From assembly GCA_964016885.1 (NCBI GenBank), contig OZ024749.1:56668001-56732000 (forward strand): 64,000 bases of DNA, in the 5' to 3' direction. Below, one piece after another: positions 3,711-62,359 of the stretch; positions within the stretch are counted from its first letter, which is position 1; every line of letters starts with the position of its first letter. The DNA is from Eledone cirrhosa. Its lineage: Eukaryota. The translations under genes were made by a program, and so were the position numbers. A model generated the notes under the pieces. The model was not told the origin of the DNA. It did no database searches and worked only from the letters and a program-made list of their open reading frames with translations.

Positions 3711-5041
3711 CACATGACTCTCTACCATACAGGCGAGTTTGGAACTGAGAACACAAACTGACGGAATATATAATTCAAATCCTCTCATTCGAAGACCAAC
3801 CAATCCTGTCAACCCACTACAGTAGCCTGGTATTTTATTCTACAAACCTGATTGAATGGAAAACAAATATGATCTGAGCCGGATGTAAATGAGCTTCATA
3901 GCTAGAACTTAACAATTTGAGATTTTACTACCACGTCCTTTACTATTCATTTCTCTGTGATCTGTATACTAATCTGTACCAGTAATACACTAATATTTGA
4001 CTTAAGAGAGTGTAACGCGCAAGTCCACAAATTCCTTGTTCCAGATTTTTCTAAATCAATATTATTTCTAAAGTACATCTCACCGAGAATATTCTAGTTA
4101 TTCAGAATTCCCAGTATCAACGGCTTTATTGACAAGCCATGTTCCTCAAGGGATATATATTCAAAATAACATAGCATGTATGTATGCCTATATATATATA
4201 TCATGTTTAATATAGAAATGGCTTCTACAGGACTCACACATATACACACACATATATATATATATATATACATACACATATATACATACATATACATATA
4301 TATACACATATGTACACACACACATATATATAGATATGTATATATATATATATATATATGGCAACTATTTTACATCTATATCTACATCTATACCTGCAAC
4401 AACAATCATCACATTTTTCAGACATTTCAGTATCAAACATCATCTTTTAACTAAATCCACAATGACAGATATAATAACAAACTTTTCCTTATATTTGTCA
4501 GGTTTCACGTTATCTTAAGGCGAAGCAAATTCCTCGATGTATTATCGAAAGATACACAACTCCCTTGTTAGTATTTAAATATAAACAAATCCGATGGACA
4601 GAGAAATATAGAAAATATATAATTGCTTTCTGATCGTTTAATATATTTATTTGAACAGATAGAAAATTAAGTCAACGGGTCAAACATCGATTTCTTATAA
4701 TAATGTTACATATATGAAACATAAGCTTATTGCTGTGTATGTAAATCGAGAGGTTAATACAATTTAAATTATGTAGGAATTACATGAAACATTCTTGTTC
4801 TTTGAGCCTGTCCGTTGGGATGAAAGCCGTTCCAGAAGTGAACATCCTGTCATTCTTTCCAGACAAATGTGTTTATTGGACAACATTTTCTAAACCATTA
4901 GATGTTTTTATTTCATTTTCGTAACAACACTGTGTTCTGGCTGATTCTGTTGTTCTGATTTAAAGTATATCCGTGGTTAGCTTTGCCTTTGATCGATAAA
5001 TAAAGTACCGATTGATTCATCCTTTCGCTCTCTCTCCCATA

Positions 5042-13986: not shown

Positions 13987-14512
13987 GTGAAACATGATTT
14001 ATGTCTTAATATACGTAAAGATATTGTATATGGCTGTATATTCACATTTATAGAGGAAAGGAGTGCGTTTGTGCCGTCAGTAACTGAATACAGAGGTTCA
14101 AATTCGCTCTCTCTATATAAGAAATCCTTTAGCACGAACATTTGTCGACATAATCCTACAATAATATGTTACCTATCATATCTTAGTACCTTGACGTAAG
14201 CAAACAAGGTACGAGAAATGCATTCGTAAATATGATCTTCGTAAATATGATCTGCAGCGTATGAGGAATTCATAGACAGTGAGATGTTCTCATCTGAAAG
14301 ACTAGACATATAATATATTTAAGTATAATAAATATATATGTGTTTTATATGTATCTTTATTCTGAATAATGGTGCCTTAGCTGTGCCGCAAATGCATCTG
14401 TGTAGGTTTTGAAACATCATGTTTTGCCTACTAGAACTACCAGTTCTACTCATTGGTAAGCAAAATAACTAAAATGGTGTGTGTATGTATATATATATAT
14501 ATATATATAGCA

Positions 14513-15876: not shown

Positions 15877-16184
<308 letters not shown>

Positions 16185-16707: not shown

Positions 16708-16936
16708 TATACACACATATATATACACGTGTGTATGAATGTTTATATGAATGCATATTTATATATATATACATATACGTATTCATATATGTGTGTATGT
16801 GCAAGTGTGCCTATGTGTGTGTGTGTGTTTATATGTCATATTTTGATAGAGTATGTGGCTCTATGTTTGAATATAGTGCTTCTTCTCCTACATTATATTA
16901 GTTCAACATAGTTATAATTGTCGGTTTTTCTTTAGT

Positions 16937-17272
16937 ACCACCGCCATTACCACTACGACCGCTATTACCACTACCGCCGCCATTACCACTACGACCGCCA
17001 TTACCACTACGACCACCATTACCACTACGACCGCCATTACCACTACCGCCGCCATTACCACTACCGCCGCCATTACCACTACCCCCGCCATTACCACTAC
17101 CGCCGCCATTACCACTACGACCACCATTACCACTACGACCGCCATTACCACTACCGCCGCCATTACCACTACGACCGCCATTACCACTACGACCGCCATT
17201 ACCACTACCGCCGCCATTACCACTACGATCGCCATTACCACTACCGCCGCCATTACCACTACCGCCGCCATT
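16937..17272. repeat. 18-bp minisatellite (ccgccattaccactacga / ..accg), ~18 units
   Basis: Directly visible; source of the MAAVVV repeat ORF. Confidence 0.95.
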
Positions 17273-18782: not shown

Positions 18783-18785
<3 letters not shown>

Positions 18786-18990
18786 GTTATTCCGGGTTGA
18801 ATCGGAGGTAACCACAGTAAGTAAGGTACTCAATACATTGCAGAGTATAAAAGTTTTTATATAGATGAAATTCTACAGGACTAGAACTGTTTCATTCTTT
18901 AGAAATCATCAGGAATCTCATGAGATTCCTTATGATTTCTAGAGAATCAAACAGTTCTAGTCCTGTAGAATCTCATCTATATTAAAACTA
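18783..18990 (-). mobile_element. HH1 element (HHR plus tail) with inverted partial duplication
   Basis: Palindrome centred 18920/18921; tail ggtaaccacagtaagtaaggtact recurs at 28764, 50553 and reversed near 59820. Confidence 0.8.
18866..18920 (-). ncRNA. Type I hammerhead ribozyme, canonical core
   Basis: tgagattc-CTGATGA-tttctaaagaat-GAAA-cag-ttctagtc-ctg-TA-gaatttca; 8-bp stem I with one G.U; the + strand twin 18921-18975 has G5U and G12C mutations. Confidence 0.75.
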
Positions 18991-22654: not shown

Positions 22655-22790
22655 TATCTTATTTCTCATTCTTTCTTCTAATGAAGGACTAGCGTCCGAA
22701 ATGTGGAGACCCTCTTCCTGCTATTTCAAGCGTTAATCTAATATATCCCTTCCATATACTGTACTGATTGTGTTGTTATTTCTGTTTACC
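22655..22790 (+). mobile_element. HH2 element with degenerate hammerhead
   Basis: tctt-CTAATGA-a-ggac-tagc-gtcc-GAAA-tgt; homologous to copies near 53030, 53480 and 54740. Confidence 0.55.
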
Positions 22791-22961: not shown

Positions 22962-23231
22962 GGAAAAGATGAAATCGAAAATGCAACAGGAGTCTTTTTT
23001 TTTTAAAATATATATTTATTTGGTTCCTTTACCGGTTTCAGAGTTCTTCTGCTTTTCAAAAGTAGAATTGAGATAGAGGGTTTGTGGTTTTTCTCACATC
23101 TCATGCGAGAAAAACCAGTTACCCTCCATCATTCTACTTTTGAAAAGCAGAAGAACTGTGAAACCTGTAAAGGAACCAAATAAATATTCTTAAGAAGAAT
23201 CCAGTTGCATTTTAGATTTCATCTTTTTTCC
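22962..23231. mobile_element. HH5 fold-back element with two inverted U3-A8 hammerheads
   Basis: ~130-bp arms; + arm ctt-TTGAAAA-gcag-aagaa-ctgt-GAAA-cctg-TA-aag (23137-23172); minus arm has the same motif with ccgg. Confidence 0.75.
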
Positions 23232-23290
23232 TTATACTTTCACTCGTGTAGGACACCTCGTTTCTTTTTCTTTTTGTAAAAAAACCTCAC

Positions 23291-23994: not shown

Positions 23995-24457
23995 CTCTTT
24001 TACTCTGTTTCAGCCATCCGGCTGAGGCCATGCTGGGGCACCGCCCTTGTTGCTACACATTTTATCTCCAGCCTGTATAGGTTGGCCACTGGTGTAAGAG
24101 GGAGTTTGTTGCTGCTGCCCTTAGGTTTCTCCCATGCCTTGCTGTGGGCTCATCCGGGATCCTGGATAACAAGGTGTCGAGATGTTTCTTGAAGACATCC
24201 ATCTCCACGATCCCTCGGCAGCTTGATGAAGAGATGAGGGCCCTTGAATCCCAGGCTATTGCAATACCTGCTCCTTATTCTAGATGTGGAAGACGGGACC
24301 TTTGGCACCACACAGTGACGTCCTGTTCGACGGTTGGTCCAGCTCCCAATGCCAAAGTTTGGTGCTAGTCCCTCCAGGATTTTCCACATGTAGATCACTG
24401 CGTATCTCTCCCGTCTTCGTTCCAAGGAGTAGAGGTTCAGTTCCTTTAGCCTCTCAT
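23995..24457 (-). mobile_element. CR1-group LINE 3' end (ORF2 C-terminus plus 3' UTR), 5'-truncated
   Basis: Translation [49 protein letters not shown], typical of the CR1/L2-group ORF2 C-terminal region; flanked by (TA)n. Confidence 0.85.
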
Positions 24458-24459
24458 GT

Positions 24460-24485
24460 GTATATATATGTATATATATATATAA

Positions 24486-24529
<44 letters not shown>

Positions 24530-28763: not shown

Positions 28764-28888
28764 GTTTATCCCGGGTTCAATCGGGGGTAACCACAGTAAG
28801 TAAGGTACTTAATACATAGCAGAGTATAAATCTGATGATTTCTCCCGAATGAAACAGTTCTAGTCCTGTAGAAACCTTTTCTATATAT
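28764..28888. mobile_element. HH1 element: reversed tail joined to + strand hammerhead (28832-28870)
   Basis: CTGATGA-tttctcccgaat-GAAA-cag-ttctagtc-ctg-TA; 5' strand of stem I lost at the junction. Confidence 0.75.
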
Positions 28889-28952
28889 TATATATATAAA
28901 TCAGAGAGAAAGAGAGTGAAAGAGAGAGAGAAAGAAAGAGAGATAGCTAATT

Positions 28953-29039
<87 letters not shown>

Positions 29040-29240
29040 CATACATATACACGTATATGTCCAAGACTGAAGTCCGAAACACAAGACTGAAACGTCAGCC
29101 AGATTGGGGACACGTTGCCTGGTGACTGTGTTATCAATTACACAAAATGTCTTCTGATCGACAAATAATCAAAGAAATTCCACCCGTGACTCCCACATTT
29201 TTTCCTGTTTGTGAGTCCATGACTATGTTATCTACAGTAT

Positions 29241-30761: not shown

Positions 30762-31008
30762 TCATATGTTTCTATATGTTACATGTGTACGTATGTGTAT
30801 ATATAATATATCATATATTCTGTAGAATGTCAACAAGAAAGAATTGGTGCCAGAAACCATAGATTTGCTGAATATAGGAATAGATTGTTTTGAGGCAGAA
30901 ACCCACGACTCCATCTACAGATAGTATATTAGATACACATAATACACACACATAATCACATACACATACACACACACACACAATCACACATATTTTGTGC
31001 ACAATTTA

Positions 31009-31096
31009 TAGAAATGAATTCTACAGGACTAGCAGTGTTTCATTTTTAAGAAATCACCCAAATGATTTCTTACGAATGCATCGAAACGTCAGATTA
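31009..31096. mobile_element. Degenerate HH1 inverted pair followed by catc-GAAA-cg-TC half motif
   Basis: ttctacaggactagcagtgtttcatt..agaaatca and tgatttcttacgaatg. Confidence 0.55.
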
Positions 31097-31116
31097 TCAA
31101 GACTCACTATTTCGCC

Positions 31117-31374: not shown

Positions 31375-31606
31375 CAAAGTTTGTTTTATAAATTTTGACA
31401 TAACCAAGAAAAGATACCTTACCGGTTCAAGTTTTTCTTGGATAGTGAAAGGATAAGAGAAGAAAAGTCAGATATTTCAAATTGTTAAGATGAGTATTCA
31501 ATGAGGTTGAGGTATAGGGCCGAATAAACGTTGACGGACGTAAGAATGAAAACTCAATACCGAAGTAGAATTTACATATTCATTTATTATGGCTAAGCCT
31601 TGTTAC

Positions 31607-31684
31607 TCTGGAGTCCCACCTGAGTACTCACAGGATAATCAGGCAAGACTGGGGATCCTGTGAGTGCGCAGGTGAAACTTTAGA
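31607..31684 (+). other. Imperfect ~78-nt stem-loop
   Basis: cacctgagtactcacaggat / atcctgtgagtgcgcaggtg, extended by tctggagt / actttaga with G.U pairs. Confidence 0.6.
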
Positions 31685-31728
31685 ATATCAAAGCTCACCA
31701 ATAGCCATAATAAATGATATATAATATA

Positions 31729-37367: not shown

Positions 37368-38251
37368 CAGTAGTAGTTTTAGTAGTAGTAGTTGTTGTTG
37401 TTGTTATTGATGTCATATTTATTGGGGGTGATTGTGGAGGTTTCCCTTGTTTTGTTGTTGTTGTTGTTGTCATTGACTGTTTTGGATTTATGACTGTTGT
37501 GGTTGTATGGTGGTGGGGTGTTGTGGAGGGGTGGGAGAATAAAGGACACGTAAGAAAACTCAATATAAATATTGGTGATGATGATGATGATAAGGAGGAA
37601 CAGTCTAATAGTATTAATGTTCTTGATGATGATGATAATTTGTCAGATGATAAATTTGAAAATTATTTGGACCAATAATAAAAGGGAAAGTCAGAGAAAG
37701 GGACTGTAAGTGGGTGAGAAGTATCCCTAAACTCATGTCCTCATAAATGTTTACAAAATTCATTGGAAATAATATATCTTAAAATATTACAAACAAAATT
37801 TATCCACAAAAACACCCAAAACATTACCTTTAAAAAAAAAAAAAAATCTGAAATAAAAATCCTACAAATTTTAGCCTCAAGAAACAAAATTATACAAAAA
37901 CGATACATAGAAAATTTCCCCACCCTAACACAAAACATTCCAGGCAGACTACTGTATTCCCCTCCGTCGAAGATGCTTCACCCTCGAAGACGTTACCCAG
38001 TTTTGACAACCAAAAATTTGAAAAACAATCATAAATATAAAAATAAGGTCCTGGCACATCAGGTCTTGTTTATCTAAATTGTATAATGATATTTTGTTTA
38101 TTTATTACTTTAACTCAGTATACTTTATACATGTGATTGAGAGGTCTTATACAGGAGTTCAGATTACTGTCTAGCAGAGAGATATTTCCTCAGGTGTTAG
38201 GATATGTCAATTAGAAGTGCAAGTTTCTGCTAGGAAATACTTTATATGAGT

Positions 38252-39683
38252 AAAACCCAACAAAGGTAACAAATCTGAGACAACATCACAAGCAAACAAT
38301 AAAACCCAACAAAGGTAACAAATCTGAGACAACATCAGAAGCAAACAATAAAACCCAACAAAGGTAACAAATCTGAGACAACATCAGAACCAAACAATAA
38401 AACCCAACAAAGGTAACAAATCTGAGACAACATCAAAAGCAACCAATATAAAACCCAACAAAGGTAACAAATCTGAGACAACATCAGAAGCAAACAATAA
38501 AACCCAACAAAGGTAACAAATCTGAGACAACATCAAAAGCAACCAATATAAAACCCAACAAAGGTAACAAATCTGAGACAACATCAGAAGCAAACAATAA
38601 AACCCAACAAAGGTAACAAATCTGAGACAACATCAGAAGCAAACAATAAAACCCAACAAAGGTAACAAATCTGAGACAACATCAGAAGCAAACAATAAAA
38701 CCCAACAAAGGTAACAAATCTGAGACAACATCAGAAGCAAACAATAAAACCCAACAAAGGTAACAAATCTGAGACAACATCAGAAGCAACCAATATAAAA
38801 CCCAACAAAGGTAACAAATCTGAGACAACATCAGAAGCAAACAATAAAACCCAACAAAGGTAACAAATCTGAGACAACATCAGAAGCAAACAATAAAACC
38901 CAACAAAGGTAACAAATCTGAGACAGCATCAGAAGCAAACAATAAAACCCAACAAAGGTAACAAATCTGAGACAACATCAGAAGCAAACAATAAAACCCA
39001 ACAAAGGTAACAAATCTGAGACAACATCAGAAGCAAACAATAAAACCCAACAAAGGTAACAAATCTGAGACAACATCAGAAGCAAACAATAAAACCCAAC
39101 AAAGGTAACAAATCTGAGACAACATCAGAAGCAACCAATATAAAACCCAACAAAGGTAACAAATCTGAGACAACATCAGAAGCAAACAATAAAACCCAAC
39201 AAAGGTAACAAATCTGAGACAACATCAGAAGCAAACAATAAAACCCAACAAAGGTAACAAATCTGAGACAGCATCAGAAGCAAACAATAAAACCCAACAA
39301 AGGTAACAAATCTGAGACAACATCAGAAGCAAACAATAAAACCCAACAAAGGTAACAAATCTGAGACAACATCAGAAGCAAACAATAAAACCCAACAAAG
39401 GTAACAAATCTGAGACAACATCAGAAGCAAACAATAAAACCCAACAAAGGTAACAAATCTGAGACAACATCAGAAGCAACCAATATAAAACCCAACAAAG
39501 GTAACAAATCTGAGACAACATCAGAAGCAAACAATAAAACCCAACAAAGGTAACAAATCTGAGACAACATCAGAAGCAAACAATAAAACCCAACAAAGGT
39601 AACAAATCTGAGACAGCATCAGAAGCAAACAATAAAACCCAACAAAGGTAACAAATCTGAGACAACATCAGAAGCAAACAATC
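38252..39683. repeat. 49-bp tandem repeat, ~29 units, with 345-bp higher-order repeat
   Basis: Unit aaaacccaacaaaggtaacaaatctgagacaacatcagaagcaaacaat; 51-bp variant units interspersed. Confidence 0.97.
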
Positions 39684-39959
39684 ATAAATATATCTTGACA
39701 AGGACAGACCACCAACTAATGATACAGACATCATTCTAGAGATAATTTACCTTATTAAGAAAAACTTTGTACTACAACACCGCCTCCATGACCACCACCG
39801 TGACCACCACCACCACCATCATCATTGTCTTATTATTGTTTTTATCCGTTTCCCTTGGTAACAGATAATCACAAATTATTGATATATCTTACAAAATATT
39901 TCTGATTACTGATTAGGAATATATATATGTATCTACACATACACTCAGCCCCCCCCCCA

Positions 39960-41525: not shown

Positions 41526-41741
41526 AGGAAAATGTTCAAGACCCCAACGGCAGAGCTCAAGGGCCATTTCGACGGCTATTTCTGGGCTAAATCTAATTTA
41601 GTCCAGAAATAGTCGTCGAAACGGCTTGAGCTCTGCCGTCGGGGTCTTGAACATTTTCCTATTTCCCACTCTACTACCCTAAGTATTCAGTACTCTGGTG
41701 CGTTATGGTCCATCTGGTTCCTTACCACACTTCCTTCGTTA
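41526..41741 (+). mobile_element. HH3 element, longest copy: palindrome 41526-41660 plus tail
   Basis: aggaaaatgttcaagacccc..ggggtcttgaacattttcct with GAAA-cggc-ttgagctct-gccg-TC in the right arm; TA tracts on both sides. Confidence 0.8.
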
Positions 41742-43055: not shown

Positions 43056-43300
43056 GAAATCGAAAATGCAACTGGATTCTTTTTAAGAATATTTATTTGG
43101 TTCCTTTACCGGATTCACAGTTCTTATGATTTTCAAAAGTAGAATTGTGATGGAGGGTTTGTGGTTTTTCTCGCATCTGAGAAAAACCACAAACCCTCCA
43201 TCACAATTCTACTTTTGAAAAGCATGAGAACTGTGAAACCGGTAAAGGAACCAAATATCCTTAAAAAGACCCCAGCTTCATTTTCGATTTCATCTTTTTT

Positions 43301-43304
<4 letters not shown>
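43056..43304. mobile_element. HH5 fold-back element, second copy
   Basis: Homologous to 22962-23231; + arm ctt-TTGAAAA-gca-tgagaac-tgt-GAAA-ccgg-TA-aag (43212-43247). Confidence 0.75.
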
Positions 43305-49001: not shown

Positions 49002-49370
49002 GGGTCACATATGTGTTGTCTGAGGGCCGCACACGACAACTAATTAAAGTCATTTAATAAAATTTATTGCAGAAAAATGTGTTACTTAAATTTAAAACCT
49101 TACAATGTTTTACAAGGTTTATAAGTATGGATTTTCATAAGATATTCGTAGTTGTCTCAGTGGCCTAGCGGTAGGTACTAGAGGCGGTGGTGATCCTAGT
49201 CAAGAGGTACATGTAGTCTTTTTCTGTTTTTATTTTACATCCCATAGAAAAAAAAACTGAAAAGGTTTACCGGGAACCCTACCCAACCAGGATCACCACC
49301 GTCTATGATTCCCCCAACTCGGCCGCAGAGACAGCTACAAAAATATTATGAAAATTAATAATTATAAACC
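49002..49370 (+). mobile_element. ~360-bp repeat with two convergent tRNA-like heads
   Basis: Reverse-complement homologue of 50632-50992; imperfect internal inverted repeat 49116-49158 / 49328-49370. Confidence 0.7.
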
Positions 49371-49832: not shown

Positions 49833-49890
49833 AATGATTTTCCTGATGATTTATTACGAATGAAACAGCTCTAGTCCTGTAAAGATCATT
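49833..49890 (+). ncRNA. HH1 hammerhead, canonical core
   Basis: aatgattttc-CTGATGA-tttattacgaat-GAAA-cag-ctctagtc-ctg-TA-aagatcatt. Confidence 0.6.
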
Positions 49891-49907
49891 CCTATAGTAA
49901 AATGAAC

Positions 49908-49950
<43 letters not shown>

Positions 49951-50552: not shown

Positions 50553-51047
50553 TGTTTATCCCAGGTTGAATCGGGGGTAACCACAGTAAGTAAGGTACTC
50601 AATACAAAGCAGAGTATAAATGTTTAATGAATAGCTGTCTCGGCGGCCGAGTTAGAGCAATCATAGACGGTGGTGATCCAGGTCTGAAGTTCGATCCTGG
50701 TCGGGTGTATGGTTCCTGGTAACCCTTTTCAGTTTTTTTCTATAGGATGTAAAATGAAAACTGAAAATGATTACATGTACTCTAGGATTGAACCCAAGAC
50801 CAGGAACTCCACCGTCTCTAGTACCTACCGCTAGGCCACTGAGACAGCTACGAATATCTTATAAAACTTCATACTAATAAACCTTGTAAAACATTGTTTC
50901 TAAATTTAAGTAACAAATATTTTCTGCTATAAATTTTATTAAATGACTTTAATTAGTTGTCGTGTGCGGCCCTCAGACAACACATGTGACCCTGATGATT
51001 TCTCCCGAATGAAACAGTTCTAGTCCTGTGGAAGTCTCTTCTATATT
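50553..51047. mobile_element. HH1 element (reversed tail 50553-50625, + strand HHR 50992-51030) split by the tRNA-like repeat
   Basis: Same pieces as 28764-28888; cleavage triplet is GUG (non-cleavable). Confidence 0.7.
50632..50992 (-). mobile_element. ~360-bp repeat with two convergent tRNA-like heads, second copy
   Basis: + strand ggccgagttag..agttcgatcct; minus strand tggcctagcggta..gggttcaatcc. Confidence 0.7.
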
Positions 51048-51644
51048 ATATATATAGTCTCTCTCTATCTACCTACCTATCTATTTCTATCTCTCACTAT
51101 ATGTCTGTCGGTATAGATGTCTATTTTTCTGCCTGGATTCTGGATTTATATTTCTCCCCCTTTCTCTCTGATTCCACCTCCACCCTCCACTCCAAATTTT
51201 CTCTGCAATGACTGCCATACCGAAATACGAAGTCAATATTTGTTGATGACAACAGATGCTGTGACTGACAAATAAGTTACAGTGATGATGATGATGATGA
51301 TGACGGTGATGGTGATTATATTGATTGGGGAGGTACAAGTGATGTTAATGGTGGTGGTGATGGTGATGATGATGGTGCTGGTGGTGGTGGTGATGATGAC
51401 GGTAATAATGATGATGATGATGCTGTTATAACTACTAAGACTTCTAGTTTGGTGTTTATTAAATGTACATTAAAAAGTTGCCGCCATTCTCTGTACAGTT
51501 TATTGTACTGGGATAAAGTGATTTATTTCACTTCGATTCAGCTTCATTTGCATTTCTTTCTTTCTTTTTTTTTCATAGAAGAAACCTTTCGTGGATAAGA
51601 AATTACATTCTTTTATTTTTAAATACTAATGTTAAATTCAATCC

Positions 51645-52329: not shown

Positions 52330-52611
52330 TCGTGATGTCTTCCCTATGTCTACAGTCTTTGCAGCTGTGATTGTAGTACCGAGGAATGATAGGAAATAGT
52401 GTTTACATACATCACAGAATATATACACCCCTACTATAGAAAGCGCTACCTTAGTGATACTGGTTATATATATATATATATAAATGTATATATAGTGTAT
52501 TTTGCAATACACTGTATGCTTAATTAAAAGCATTTCGAAGACCTTACGCTATTGTTTTAGAGTAGTGACAGTCTCACTTACTTTAAATTTTCAGCAAACA
52601 AGGGGAGATAA

Positions 52612-52656
52612 AGCTGACAGAGCTCTGTTTCGTACTTTTTGGTACTTATCAAAGCT
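52612..52656 (-). ncRNA. Minimal type I hammerhead, U3-A8 core
   Basis: agct-TTGATAA-gtac-caaaaa-gtac-GAAA-cagagctctg-TC-agct. Confidence 0.8.
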
Positions 52657-52694
52657 AAGTACTCCACCTGTTTGCTGAAAATCATGGAGTACTT

Positions 52695-52739
52695 AGCTTT
52701 GATAAGTACAAAAAAGTACGAAACAGAGCTCTGTCAGCT
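52695..52739 (+). ncRNA. Minimal type I hammerhead, U3-A8 core
   Basis: agct-TTGATAA-gtac-aaaaaa-gtac-GAAA-cagagctctg-TC-agct. Confidence 0.8.
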
Positions 52740-52900
52740 TTATCTCCCCTTGTTTGCTGAAAATTTAAAGTAAGTGAGACTGTCACTACTCTAAAACAAT
52801 AGCGTAATGTCTTCGAAATGCTTTTAATTAAGCATACAGTGTATTGCAAAATACACTATATATACATTTATATATATATATCGCTATTTCAGAGCACCAA

Positions 52901-53045: not shown

Positions 53046-53389
53046 TAGGAGAATGGGAAAAGGTAGAAACAACGGAGTTTGGAAAAGACAGAAAAGGAGG
53101 GTGGGAGGAAGAGAGGGAGAGACATAGTGGGAGGAGATAAATCGATAGGCAGATGATAGATAAATGATAGTTAGATATCCATACAAACACATATATACCA
53201 ACATTGTACATGAATTAAACAAAAAACTGATCTTAAGACTCGTCAAGTTGTGGAATAATCTATTCTAGTGACTGTGTTTCCTATGTGAAGAATAAGATTC
53301 TCGTTTCTCTTCTGAGCACGTACGACAGAAGCCATAATCAGAACAATTGAATGTTTCTACGTTTCTCACGTAGTGACATTCATTGCGAC

Positions 53390-53505
53390 AAACAACACAG
53401 TACAATAAAGAAATATATTAGTTTAACTCTTGATATAGTAGGAAAAGAATGTTATTAACGTACCGGATACTAGTCCTTCATCAGAAGATAGAATGAGAAA
53501 TAAAA
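53390..53505 (-). mobile_element. HH2 element with degenerate hammerhead
   Basis: tatttctcattctatctt-CTGATGA-a-ggactagtatcc-GGTA-cgtt. Confidence 0.55.
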
Positions 53506-57557: not shown

Positions 57558-58118
57558 GGTGGCTGCCAACTCGTTTTCGAGTACGGCCACTATTTTATAT
57601 CCATGTAGGAGAACCCCTACCGATGCGCTGAACGAGTGTGACTTTTTAGTCTAGCCAGCGACTTGAAAACTCTGGTACAAACACTACACTTGTGACAATT
57701 ATTGACACATAGTGCTGGGCCCATGGTACCATGTGACGACAAGTGCAGAGAGATCTCCAGATATAAAGCAATGCCTGTGCCGTGAAGCTTTTATAGTGAG
57801 CAAAGGCACTGCACAAAGCCAGTCCCACTCTCTTAACCAAGATGATATTTACCAAAAAGAAGAACAAGTCAACATCATTGGATACCATCAGCGTTGCAGG
57901 TGTTATATCAGAGTTTTCCTTCTCCTAGAATTCTGCCTTGACAAAGGCTAAGGGGTCATCTCTCCCGGTGATTTTGGATGGCCATTGACTCTTAAGAGCT
58001 CCTTTGCCCTTTTGACAGGTTTTGTTTTTAGTCCTGCAGGATGTTCAACCTGTCCCATGGTCGGGTCGTTGGCGACTAAACTGGCAACCCCACTAAGGTT
58101 TCTTGGTGAGGAGGGTGA
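57558..58118 (-). mobile_element. Possible RTE-clade LINE 5' UTR fragment
   Basis: Minus strand ctaggagaaggaaaactctgatataacacc resembles a motif I recall from RTE 5' UTRs; higher-GC island between microsatellites. Confidence 0.4.
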
Positions 58119-58256
58119 CATATATATATATACATATATATACATACATATACATACATATACATACATATACATACATATACATACATATACATACATA
58201 TACATATACATACATATATATATATATATACATATATATACATATATATATATACA

Positions 58257-58549
58257 ACAATACGGCACAATTATTTCACCTCAATCGGCCCTGCTCTCTT
58301 CAACATCACACCAGGACACGTCAAAACAGAAACTGACCACACAAAATCCAAGAAGTCTTTGGACAAATTCCTCCAAGTAATCCCGGACAAACCACCCACA
58401 CCCGGATATGTCTCCGCAAACAGTAATTCTCTTCTCGAATGGGCCATGGTGCCCAAATCCTGAATTGAAAGACTTCGCCAGGTGGTGCTATTAAGTTAGA
58501 CATGGCCTGGGCCAATACTGGCCAAAACATTTCAAAGTTATTCAAAGTC
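58257..58549 (+). mobile_element. CR1-group LINE 3' end, second subfamily
   Basis: 58257-58463 translates [54 protein letters not shown]; ttcaaagt repeat tail. Confidence 0.8.
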
Positions 58550-59240: not shown

Positions 59241-59380
59241 TAGTGGTAGAACACTGGAAGGTAATATCCGAAGTGGTAGAGCACTCAGTCCAAGGGACGA
59301 GTTAGGTAGAAGTGGTTACACAACAGTTAGTTCACCATACCGACAACAATTGTTTCACCTTCGCGGATCTTCAGCTTGGG
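59241..59380 (-). mobile_element. HH4 element with C3-G8 hammerhead core (59342-59374)
   Basis: CTGAAGA-t-cc-gcgaa-gg-t-GAAA-caattg-T; stem I not paired; tail homologous to 15928-16030. Confidence 0.7.
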
Positions 59381-59635: not shown

Positions 59636-59709
59636 CATATACATACATACATATATATACATATATATATATATACATATATATACGTGTGTGTGTGTCA
59701 TAATTTAGT

Positions 59710-59870
59710 ATAGAAATGGGTGCAGGATTAGAACTGTTTCATTCGTATGAAATCTTCAACGAAACAGTTCTAGTCCCGTAGAAGCCATTTCTATATTAAA
59801 TTATGATCTTTACACTTTACCAATGTATTGAGTACCTTTTTTAACTGCGACTATCCCCGATTGACTCCTA
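59710..59870 (+). mobile_element. HH1 element, degenerate inverted pair plus tail
   Basis: agaactgtttcattc..gaaacagttctagtcccgta, then caatgtattgagtacct tail. Confidence 0.7.
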
Positions 59871-60723
59871 TGCATCTGTCTCATTAAATGAGAGAGAGAG
59901 AGAGAGCGAAGGAGAGAGAGAAGTAGAGAGAGAGACAGAGAGAGAGAGAGAAGTAGAGAGCGAGGCAGAGAGAGAGAGGAGAGAGAGAGAAGGAGAGAGA
60001 GAGAGAGAGAAAGACATCTAGATGGTAATATAATATGAAGTTTATGGAGACTGTGTGTGCGGGGATATGCGCGCGTGTGTGTGCGTGTTTATGCATGTAT
60101 AGGTTATGTCTGTATGTGTTTGTATATGTATATATACGTGTGTGTGTATCTTTGTGTGTGTGTATGTATATGTATATAAGTATATATGTATTAATATCTG
60201 TATGTATGTTTCTGTGTGCATATGTATTATGTATGTATATGTGTGTGTTTATGTATGTATATGTGTGTGTTTATGTATGTATATGTGTGTGTTTATGTAT
60301 ATATGTATGTCCATGTGATAGAGAGTCACTCTGTATTAGGCTTAACACTTGGCAAAAGAACGTCTTGGGCAGAATTGGTTCCAGCTTCCATTGATAGAAT
60401 CAGTGGAAATACATTGAGTGGTACAAGACACTTAGACTGAAGAGAGAACATTACATGTATGAGACATAGAGAGGGGAAGGGGGGAGGGAGAGAGAGGGGA
60501 GGGAGGGAGAAGGAGGGAGAGAGAGGGAGAGGGAGGGGTAGATAGGGAGGAGGTAGAGAGTGAGGGAGAGAGGCGGAGAGATAGGTGAGAGAAAGACAAA
60601 GAAACAAAAAGACAGAGAAAAAGAATGGGACAGTGAAAGAGAGGCAGAGAACGAGAGAGAGAGACAAAGACAGAGGAAGAGAGACATCTATACAGAGAGA
60701 GAGAGAAAGAGAGAGAGAGAGGG

Positions 60724-61466: not shown

Positions 61467-62105
61467 AAATAGTTCCATTATCACTTTGATATTATCATAA
61501 TATATGTGATATAGTCAAATAGTTCGATTATCACTTTGATATTATCATAATATATGTGATATAGTCAAATAGTTCCATTATCACTTTGATATTATTATAA
61601 TATATGTGATATAGTCAAATAGTTCGATTATCACTTTGATATTATCATAATATATGTGATATAGTCAAATAGTTTCATTATCACTTTGATATTATTATAA
61701 TATATGTGATATAGTCAAATAGTTCCATTATCACTTTGATATTATTATAATATATGTGATATAGTCAAATAGTTCCATTATCACTTTGATATTATCATAA
61801 TATATGTGACATAGTCAAATAGTTCCATTATCACTTTGATATTATTATATATATGACATGGTCAAATTGTTACATTATCACTTTAATAATATTATATATG
61901 TGACATAGTCAAATTGTTACATTATCACTTTGATATTATATATATATGTGACATAGTCAAATAGTTCCATTATCACTTTGATAATATTATATATGTGACA
62001 TAGTCAAATAGTTCCATTATCACTTTAATAATATTATATATGTGACATAGTCAAATTGTTACATTATCACTTTGATATTATATATATATGTGACATAGTC
62101 AAATT
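61467..62105. repeat. 50-bp AT-rich minisatellite, ~13 units
   Basis: aaatagttccattatcactttgatattatcataatatatgtgatatagtc; later units shorter. Confidence 0.95.
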
Positions 62106-62359
62106 GCTCAAACACATCTCAGCTCTCTGACGGAAGATTCCGCAATTTGTTTAATTGTTTTATACTTGTTAATTAAGGGATTGCAAGTGAATAGCATGTG
62201 TCCCCAGTGTCCCCATTCGTTGAGAAGACATGCTAAGCTACAACAGATTATATGTTTCAGCTGAGAGTGTCATATTTTATATTCTCAGAAACATTATTGC
62301 AATAGAAAATATCCAGTATTTAAAAAAATATGTACAATAGACATAGCAATACAGAGAAG

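Follow-up and report, generated by a model that had tools for sequence, protein, structure and literature searches.

The HH1 repeats of this DNA, short units that carry a type I hammerhead and a tail, are probably the 5'-truncated, dead-on-arrival solo pseudo-LTR (pLTR) remnants of a Penelope-like retroelement (PLE), and an origin of some kind from a PLE is likely. That the copies work like PLE remnants is well supported. Membership itself we infer, given that the window (the whole 64-kb stretch of DNA that was analysed) holds no parent ORF and that the 34-aa frame through the HH1 tail, a low-power query, matched 0 proteins among 1.84 billion. HH1 represents one more animal hammerhead family of the Penelope type, and all of the features flagged in the original prediction are already in print. 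The hammerhead reading, the inversions, the U.U pair and the two core changes in one arm have all stood, while the significance suggested for them was overstated; the features that identify the element, namely a tail with two end points, a palindromic loop III and microsatellite flanks, are absent from that prediction. The literature itself names two questions as open, namely the route by which PLEs form inverted structures and the role of their weak ribozymes (PMC8557442, PMC3846280, PMC11167929). Since very short copies expose both cDNA ends, genome-wide mapping of HH1 ends could separate two-strand priming from fold-back, and could also test whether cleaved RNA ever serves as a template.

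The HH1 copies and their ribozyme

The window is AT-rich and looks like animal DNA, and simple repeat makes up 34% of it (masked). Within it the stem III/cleavage motif matches eight times where 0.84 matches are expected, a number reached by 0 of 100 shuffles. Likewise, a strict hammerhead descriptor yields six distinct matches, three of them HH1, against a mean of 0.22 over 200 shuffles, and the descriptor with a stem I of at least 6 bp has a single match in the window, 18912(-), and none in any of 200 shuffles. Self-comparison and an HMM together resolve 12 arms at seven loci, of which nine are scored ribozyme-bearing arms, one is a 17-nt stub and two are tail-only (Table 1); each locus contains part of a type I hammerhead motif and/or 19-108 nt of downstream tail. 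All six loci named originally (18783, 28764, 31009, 49833, 50553 and 59710) are present, although the list was incomplete, a seventh fragment, 4199-4233(-), having emerged from self-comparison. The HMM was trained on 11 arms and recovers those 11 by construction; its scan of the window found no HH1 copy beyond them, the remainder being five weak matches with E>0.1.

At gathering score Rfam has no match anywhere in the window, and its best ribozyme match for HH1 is HH9, at 14.8 bits and E 0.46 against a cut-off of 52; a textbook-like minimal hammerhead motif elsewhere in the window likewise receives no Rfam score. Rfam scans by E-value were swamped by miRNA models that match microsatellites and the 18783 palindrome, and ARAGORN found 0 tRNA genes in the window. 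The core/stem II pattern, sought in genomes of bacteria and archaea, had a single exact match (L001:301-326), which was rejected as chance, since it lies inside a 74-codon bacterial ORF and is without stem III; it sits just upstream of what we take to be a PemK/MazF-like start.

Table 1. HH1 arms by locus, with tails, junctions and flanks
Feature	Position	Strand	Details
Seventh fragment	4199..4233	-	-7 to +27
Complete type I hammerhead, sole one among these arms	18865..18921	-	C3 at 18912; stem I of 9 bp (18913-18921 paired with 18865-18873); U.U then 3-bp stem II; 4-bp stem III, 8-nt loop; GUA triplet, N17 = 18874
Long tail of 18912(-) arm	18786..18864	-	ends at +88 beside (TA)n
Inverted twin arm, 18783 locus	18920..18989	+	-47 to +22; G5>U at 18931, G12>C at 18948
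Centre of 18783 inversion	18920-18921		2-nt AT common to minus and plus arms
Tail-only arm, 28764 locus	28764..28830	-	about +23 to long end
Hammerhead arm, 28764 locus	28832..28889	+	C3 to +19; core and stems II/III intact; without stem I 5' strand
Arm, 31009 locus	31003..31056	-	N7 to +19; mismatches in stems II and III
Inverted stub, 31009 locus	31062..31078	+	A6 to G12; then GAAACGTC 3' half resembling another hammerhead family
Solo arm	49833..49909	+	-48 to +28; stem I 5' strand retained; no G at +1; mismatch in stem II; flanks (TA)n on one side, (TAGA)n on the other
Tail-only arm, 50553 locus	50553..50630	-	about +10/+16 to long end
360-bp piece of different repeat at 50553 inversion junction	50632..50992	-	81% identical to 49002-49337
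Hammerhead arm, 50553 locus	50991..51049	+	-39 to +19; GUG triplet; without stem I 5' strand
Arm, 59710 locus	59697..59758	-	U4 to +24; U16.1>C; 3-nt deletion after triplet
Inverted partner, 59710 locus	59759..59888	+	-21 to +108; divergent tail, 71-76% identical to other HH1 tails; ends at (GA)n

Read 5' to 3', the HH1 unit comprises the 5' strand of stem I, CTGATGA, a T, a 3-bp stem II with a 4-nt loop, a further T and GAAA, followed by CAG-TTCTAGTC-CTG, TA, the 3' strand of stem I and the tail. Core and stem III had been described as nearly constant. When the core, N7/N17, both inner stems (II and III) and loop III are taken together over the nine arms, the column majority is departed from in only 13 of 270 cells (4.8%), with at most one arm doing so in any column. 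By part, the differences amount to 3/78 in the core, 3/58 in stem II, 2/51 in stem III, 3/67 in loop III and 11/28 in loop II, and loop II and distal stem I vary at about 38%. The variability ascribed to stem I holds for its 3' strand, where 18 of 48 cells differ at +4 to +9 (eight arms, 59758 being excluded for its 3-nt deletion), a figure inflated by the two 18783 arms, which are 1 nt shorter; the five arms of the same length differ in 7/30. The type I core (C3-U4-G5-A6-N7-G8-A9, G12-A13-A14, A15.1-U16.1, H17) is complete at 18912(-), 28832(+) and 49843(+) and damaged or truncated in the remaining six of the nine scored arms, and three helices around the core with an open stem I occur in only one of the nine, 18912(-), with 9 + 3 + 4 bp.

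In place of the usual G-C pair 10.1-11.1, seven arms have U.U. The opening of stem II by this pair was correctly foreseen and, given that U10.1 is found in 7/7 arms and U11.1 in 7/8, it is a state of the family and not decay; it also occurs in two other families of the window (31581-31716 and 59374). Lünse et al. (2017) reportedly described PLE hammerhead dimers, which may include U.U or long-loop variants. The U10.1-U11.1 closure is already described in nature and so is not new: Perreault et al. give natural stems II that open with it and describe it as the best-tolerated mismatch (PMC3088659), and about 60,000 axolotl motifs carry U.U and self-cleave, better as dimers (PMC7229834). The Hydra and D. 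willistoni PLE rows of Fig. S3 in PMC4209133 can be read as U.U too, a reading of our own across displaced columns. The original prediction allowed that the U.U form might be inactive in every context, and the published active axolotl family answers this in the negative (PMC7229834). Further, the stem III strand is self-complementary, with a predicted self-duplex of -12.8 kcal/mol against -1.4 kcal/mol for the hairpin, and loop III holds a palindrome that is constant among copies whose tails are 71-76% identical. The constancy of loop III despite diverged tails suggests a dimer interface, as in PLE hammerheads, which are described as dimer-type (PMC4209133; review PMC6765202).

Whether pairing is kept as stem I varies, as had been proposed, can be asked at two of the seven loci, the 5' strand of stem I being retained in only three arms. 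At 18783 the proposal stands, with 9/9 pairs in both 18912(-) and 18929(+). At 49833 it stands conditionally: the G at +1 that is present in seven of eight arms is missing there, so that 9/9 pairs form only if the C before C3 is left unpaired, the strict register giving 4/10. Each 5' strand binds its own 3' strand best among nine tested, the duplex energies for own against best other strand being -10.5 and -7.9 vs -6.2, and -5.5 vs -4.4 kcal/mol. Granting the lost G at 49833, two pairs are changed on both sides between the 18783 and 49833 loci. Covariation in a three-row MAFFT alignment, in which the 49833 gap was set off the pairing register, comes to one both-side pair and is not significant (176/500 shuffles; covariation score 119/500). 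Compensatory change in stem I is plausible from two loci and one assumed 1-nt loss.

Truncation or disabling damage affects all but one of the nine scored arms. The disabling changes are G5>U with G12>C (18929+), loss of the 5' strand (28832+, 50992+), the GUG triplet (50992+), the lost G+1 with a stem II mismatch (49843+) and U16.1>C (59758-), and three arms (31056-, 59759+ and 4233-) are truncated into the core or beyond. The core is changed as often as the stems (3/78, or 3.8%, vs 4-5%), as expected from unselected decay after insertion. The twin arms of 18783 differ at 5/69 positions, two of them in the core, and the original report of two core mutations in one twin arm beside an intact partner is accurate. 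Selective inactivation of the 18929(+) twin arm was rejected, given that two of five changes in the core lie within chance (hand binomial, p about 0.18); the two changes are compatible with neutral decay. For the intact arm, 18912(-), the hammerhead fold is predicted to lie 3.4 kcal/mol above the minimum-energy fold, with a probability of 0.001, and its stem I does form in the prediction (pair probabilities 0.61-0.97). In single-strand folding none of five arms is more stable than shuffles, the intact arm having a z of -0.97, and a transcript across the whole 18783 palindrome is predicted to fold into a hairpin (-87 to -89 kcal/mol) in which both motifs are buried.

Likeness to Penelope-like insertions

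Five of the seven loci (18783, 28764, 31009, 50553 and 59710) are inverted at or beside the ribozyme, the number originally given, and all five have head-to-head geometry; 49833 and 4206 are not inverted. The inversions are real, but they are not distinctive, being standard in Penelope-like insertions (PMC3846280, PMC8557442). Relative to N17, the 3' ends fall into a short class at +19, +19, +19, +22, +24, +27 and +28 and a long class at +88 and +108; both tail-only arms end at +88, so that three long ends coincide. A short and a long end are paired at every inverted locus with two traceable ends (4/5, the 31009 partner being a stub). The 5' ends of the nine scored arms lie at -48, -47, -47, -39, -38, -37, -34, -21 and -7, the 31062(+) stub beginning at A6. 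Mapped relative to the cleavage site, as originally suggested, they cluster in the 5' half of the ribozyme with none at the cleavage site, a start at +1 being detectable in four arms only. Arms overlap at 18783, 31009 and 59710 and do not overlap at 28764 and 50553, where the tail-only arms start at about +23 and at +10 to +16, respectively, and the partner ribozyme arms end at +19. In LINE-1, twin priming gives a 5' inversion that adjoins, at its outer end, the point where the non-inverted part begins; L1 arms are not known to overlap, and L1 carries poly(A) tails but lacks a hammerhead. The 28764 and 50553 loci resemble this pattern, whereas the three HH1 loci with overlapping arms differ from it.

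One lead goes beyond the published work that we found, the crowding of breakpoints into the ribozyme's 5' half, where sequences of different families also appear to be joined. A search of the literature by titles and abstract openings found no study that maps PLE inversion breakpoints on the ribozyme, which does not imply absence from print, and the lead needs genome-wide numbers.

The traits of EN+ PLEs that are found in HH1 include a palindromic dimer-type helix III, 5' truncation with a head-to-head inverted copy (5/7 loci), a 3' tail on one arm and AT-rich microsatellite flanks, which adjoin 9/11 outer ends as against 5% of control positions (p 1e-10, with ends placed by eye). Pfam finds no RT or GIY-YIG remnant in 109 unmasked frames of at least 48 aa or in 15 hand-picked ORFs of the window, and the copies are too short to include one; nor does the window contain a tandem HH1 copy forming pLTRs around an ORF, holding solo remnants only. 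The tail may possibly be the start of the parent ORF. Differences between 59803-59888 and the tails at 18786-18850, 28764-28830 and 50553-50622 favour third codon positions (9/15, p 0.03), a weak signal on which we do not rely, the p value being uncorrected for frame choice and the blocks set by hand.

Among published systems, the PLE hammerheads of Hydra and D. willistoni share with HH1 the type I topology, the CUGAUGA core, a self-complementary stem III strand, mostly solo dispersed motifs and high variability within a genome, and as we read their rows, in which the GAAA column is displaced, these also have a U on each side of helix II and a triplet ending in A (PMC4209133). The same source describes PLE pLTRs as carrying type I hammerheads with a palindromic helix III, mostly as solo motifs, some of which lie on opposite strands at distances of 100-700 bp; the motifs are highly variable and show compensatory changes. 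Compared with these, HH1 has an uninterrupted stem I of 9-10 bp (2-5 bp being typical), a 3-bp stem II, a 4-bp stem III whose 8-nt loop holds a CUAG palindrome with flanking pyrimidine mismatches, and no linked ORF in the window; its stems I and III are longer than those of most published PLE hammerheads.

Published Penelope-like insertions include pLTRs inverted head to head, palindromes at the junction, tails limited to one of the arms and unrelated DNA caught between solo pLTRs (PMC3846280; cf. PMC8969392). Inverted copies truncated at the 5' side, with a tail at only one end, and a preference for microsatellites are on record too (PMC8557442). Like the insertions of Adineta vaga Pen2a (PMC3846280) and of the legend to Fig. 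2 of PMC8557442, HH1 has truncated copies in head-to-head inversion, a junction palindrome, an extension confined to one arm, foreign DNA between solo pLTRs and microsatellite targets. Its copies, in contrast, measure only 35-135 nt, its breakpoints lie inside the ribozyme, and its short and long ends are 60-85 nt apart as against a published Penelope tail of 30-40 bp. A parallel is also offered by the anole element Poseidon PAc (PMC11167929), the purified protein of which cuts and extends both target strands at AT-rich DNA. The protein starts at two internal sites of the RNA, about 85-92 nt past the ribozyme cut by our subtraction from published numbers, and the RNA is inserted uncleaved, the ribozyme cleaving only with the protein. 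HH1 resembles PAc in its long end about 88 nt past the cut, two start sites, AT-rich targets and insertion through an uncleaved ribozyme. The PAc ORF, however, opens at stem II, whereas the core ATG of HH1 meets an in-frame TGA (U11.1-G12-A13), and consequently an HH1 ORF cannot run through the ribozyme there.

A further comparison is with the axolotl non-LTR retrozyme HHR_Amex2. Its hammerhead is likewise of animal origin and of type I, has U.U mismatched where helix II begins, and is weak as a monomer (22% in 1 h) and stronger as a dimer (PMC7229834). That element is described as having tandem 350-bp repeats, loop 1-loop 2 contacts and circular RNAs, whereas HH1 is dispersed and inverted, has a hypervariable loop II and lacks an internal loop in stem I. 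The canonical loop 1-loop 2 contact is absent from HH1, with no stem I internal loop and a loop II that differs in 11/28 cells. A non-LTR retrozyme as defined in PMC7229834 was therefore rejected, HH1 being without tandem 150-450 bp monomers and without the loop 1-loop 2 signature.

Formation of the inverted copies

The geometry, the ends, the flanks and the damage to single copies are seen directly in the DNA, and behind them we infer the following history. In source elements elsewhere in the genome selection would have maintained the ribozyme, so that drift between sources would have touched loop II and distal stem I but not the core, the U.U pair, stem II or loop III, with stem I being re-paired in each source. 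The ribozyme likely acts as a dimer through its self-complementary stem III strand, possibly needing the protein of the element. At an AT-rich microsatellite the RT-endonuclease of the element likely put a nick into each strand and primed two cDNAs on uncleaved RNA, one from the far tail site and the other from the near site, and both cDNAs would have stopped in or just before the ribozyme and been joined 3' end to 3' end through junctions of 0-6 nt. One RNA primed twice might give the non-overlapping loci (28764, 50553), and two RNAs the palindromes (18783, 31009, 59710). We give roughly even chances to inversion by such two-strand priming, which is favoured because the anole PLE protein cuts and extends both strands, uses an RNA with two start sites and inserts it unprocessed (PMC11167929). 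Target-site duplications are unreadable within the flanking microsatellites.

Given the same PLE origin, the inversions might instead arise when one cDNA, or an antisense template, folds back and primes itself, the non-overlapping loci being made by later asymmetric deletion of an unstable palindrome, a possible though less probable route. The two arms end within one base of each other at 18783 (-47/-47) and 31009 (-34/-35), and fold-back fits such symmetric truncation at least equally well; near-symmetric centres also recur in other families of the window, the arms of one locus share diagnostic variants, and self-priming has been proposed for PLE junction palindromes (PMC3846280). At 28764 and 50553, however, the short arms hold ribozyme sequence that is absent from the long arms, with breakpoints abutting near +19, for which fold-back needs an extra deletion at both loci. 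Further, the 59710 arms stop 16 nt apart, and the short site also terminates solo copies. Different in kind is the proposal, in our judgement unlikely, that HH1 is a complete short non-autonomous element, SINE-like or a retrozyme-like monomer, with an RNA that starts at the stem I 5' strand and borrows PLE enzymes. Stem I is the upstream limit of every arm, with three of them beginning right at it (-47, -47, -48), all three frames through the ribozyme contain a stop, and retrozymes have been argued to derive from pLTRs (10.64898/2026.07.22.740005). Priming by RT at the first pLTR of a full-length RNA would nevertheless be expected to leave a hard 5' boundary as well, neither a head-to-tail tandem nor a cut-site-to-cut-site unit occurs in the window, and the weak, uncorrected codon signal of the tail is of the kind expected at the start of a parent ORF.

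The remaining alternatives concern single features or the nature of the copies as a whole. Between 28832 and 50992 distal stem I differs at 3/6 positions and the rest of the ribozyme at 1/39; both surviving 5' strands lie at the very end of a copy, two arms break at C3/2.1, and each stem is one transition short of perfect complementarity. All this would suit a long stem I that is itself a product of inversion, a tiny inverted copy of +1 to +10 joined before the core through a 3-bp proximal stem, with the pairing remade at insertion and not maintained by selection. That reading is improbable: the sequence upstream at 49833 is not the complement of +11 onward (two mismatches beside the flank), the 18783 centre is explained by two arms with a 2-nt overlap, and n = 2. 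It is very improbable that the copies are ribozymes or hairpin RNA genes maintained by the host, as the one intact arm and the long predicted hairpin of the 18783 palindrome, with its weak score against miRNA models, might suggest, for the core is changed as often as the stems, 8/9 scored arms are truncated or disabled and every Rfam score falls below gathering. Scarcely credible, finally, is an origin of the palindromes as fold-back artefacts of sequencing or assembly; the window is 34% simple repeat, but the 18783 arms differ at 5/69 positions, arms end at family-specific sites and two loci have arms that do not overlap.

A further reading, which is quite unlikely, would have the ribozyme itself organise Penelope integration: two uncleaved RNAs would pair through the palindromic stem III strand, each would be primed by one nicked strand, the RTs would stop at the ribozyme and the cDNA ends would be joined there. 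If this were true it would explain why head-to-head inversions are centred on the hammerhead and would allow families to be swapped at the ribozyme (31062-31115, 50632-50992). Stem I could then be rebuilt from an inverted copy of its own 3' strand, and the hammerhead would serve transposition chiefly as a structural scaffold and less as a nuclease.

Other repeats of the window

About eight further hammerhead-like repeat families occur in the window with habits like those of HH1, several of them as head-to-head palindromes. A young one (96.5%) at 52519-52832 belongs to another hammerhead family and has both arms intact (52699+, 52652-), with a U3-A8 core variant, a 4-bp stem I, a perfect palindromic stem III and, at its centre, a short piece resembling the family's own tail. 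Two palindromes of one family, 22970-23232 and 43056-43303, have a U3-A8-type core and an ACCGGT stem III, and in both the arms begin about 45 nt upstream of the core. A decayed palindrome at 31581-31716, whose stem II is longer and has U.U at its base, is a candidate for the family that the original prediction called HH4. Decayed minimal-type hammerheads at 22659-22771(+) and 53388-53503(-) have an extra base after A9 and G10.1-C11.1, as in the published PLE consensus.

Degenerate copies only are found of a hammerhead-like family with a U.U stem II (59247-59376(-), 15934-16066(-) and 48977(+), the last without GAAA), in which the putative stem I strand seems to be set off from the core by four extra bases, an arrangement that would be unusual if real. 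Downstream of the 48977 motif lies a repeat (49002-49365 and 50632-50992) with an inverted pair of tRNA-like heads, their A and B boxes identified by eye and ARAGORN reporting none; the 50632-50992 copy, inside the HH1 inversion junction, begins near its own putative cut site. Another family, at 14492, 19006, 22591, 23419, 41527-41659 and 63055, has only the 3' half of a hammerhead-like motif, comprising GAAA, a stem III with a GAGCTC palindrome and GTC. The start points of several of its copies almost coincide, one copy lies next to the HH1 locus at 18990, and its tail has the GTATTGAGTAC motif in common with HH1. One of the hammerhead-like families has an 11-nt motif identical to one of the HH1 tail, at a count that is marginal by itself (seven matches, with 4/100 shuffles as high). 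At 31062-31115 an HH1 stub of core and stem II is continued by the GAAACGTC 3' half of a different family, apparently a chimeric ribozyme, and a further GAAACGTC motif lies at 29063-29100, 170 nt after the 28764 locus.

Beyond the hammerheads, a dispersed SINE-like family with a tRNA-type B-box is present in about 14 pieces (5679, 6490, 8097, 13525, 17293, 17520, 17907, 26239, 26914, 29773, 47926, 48080, 51648 and 63739), which presumably resemble cephalopod tRNA-derived SINEs. Frames at 24150-24527(-) and 58119-58463(+) have no Pfam match and resemble 3' remnants of a CR1/L2-type LINE. A single C2H2 zinc finger at 57620-57790(-), with an E of 3e-4 and below the curated cut-off, is the only Pfam signal among the 109 frames. 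Minisatellite arrays occupy 38251-39688 (about 99/49 bp), 61467-62106 (50 bp) and 16936-17272 (54/18 bp).
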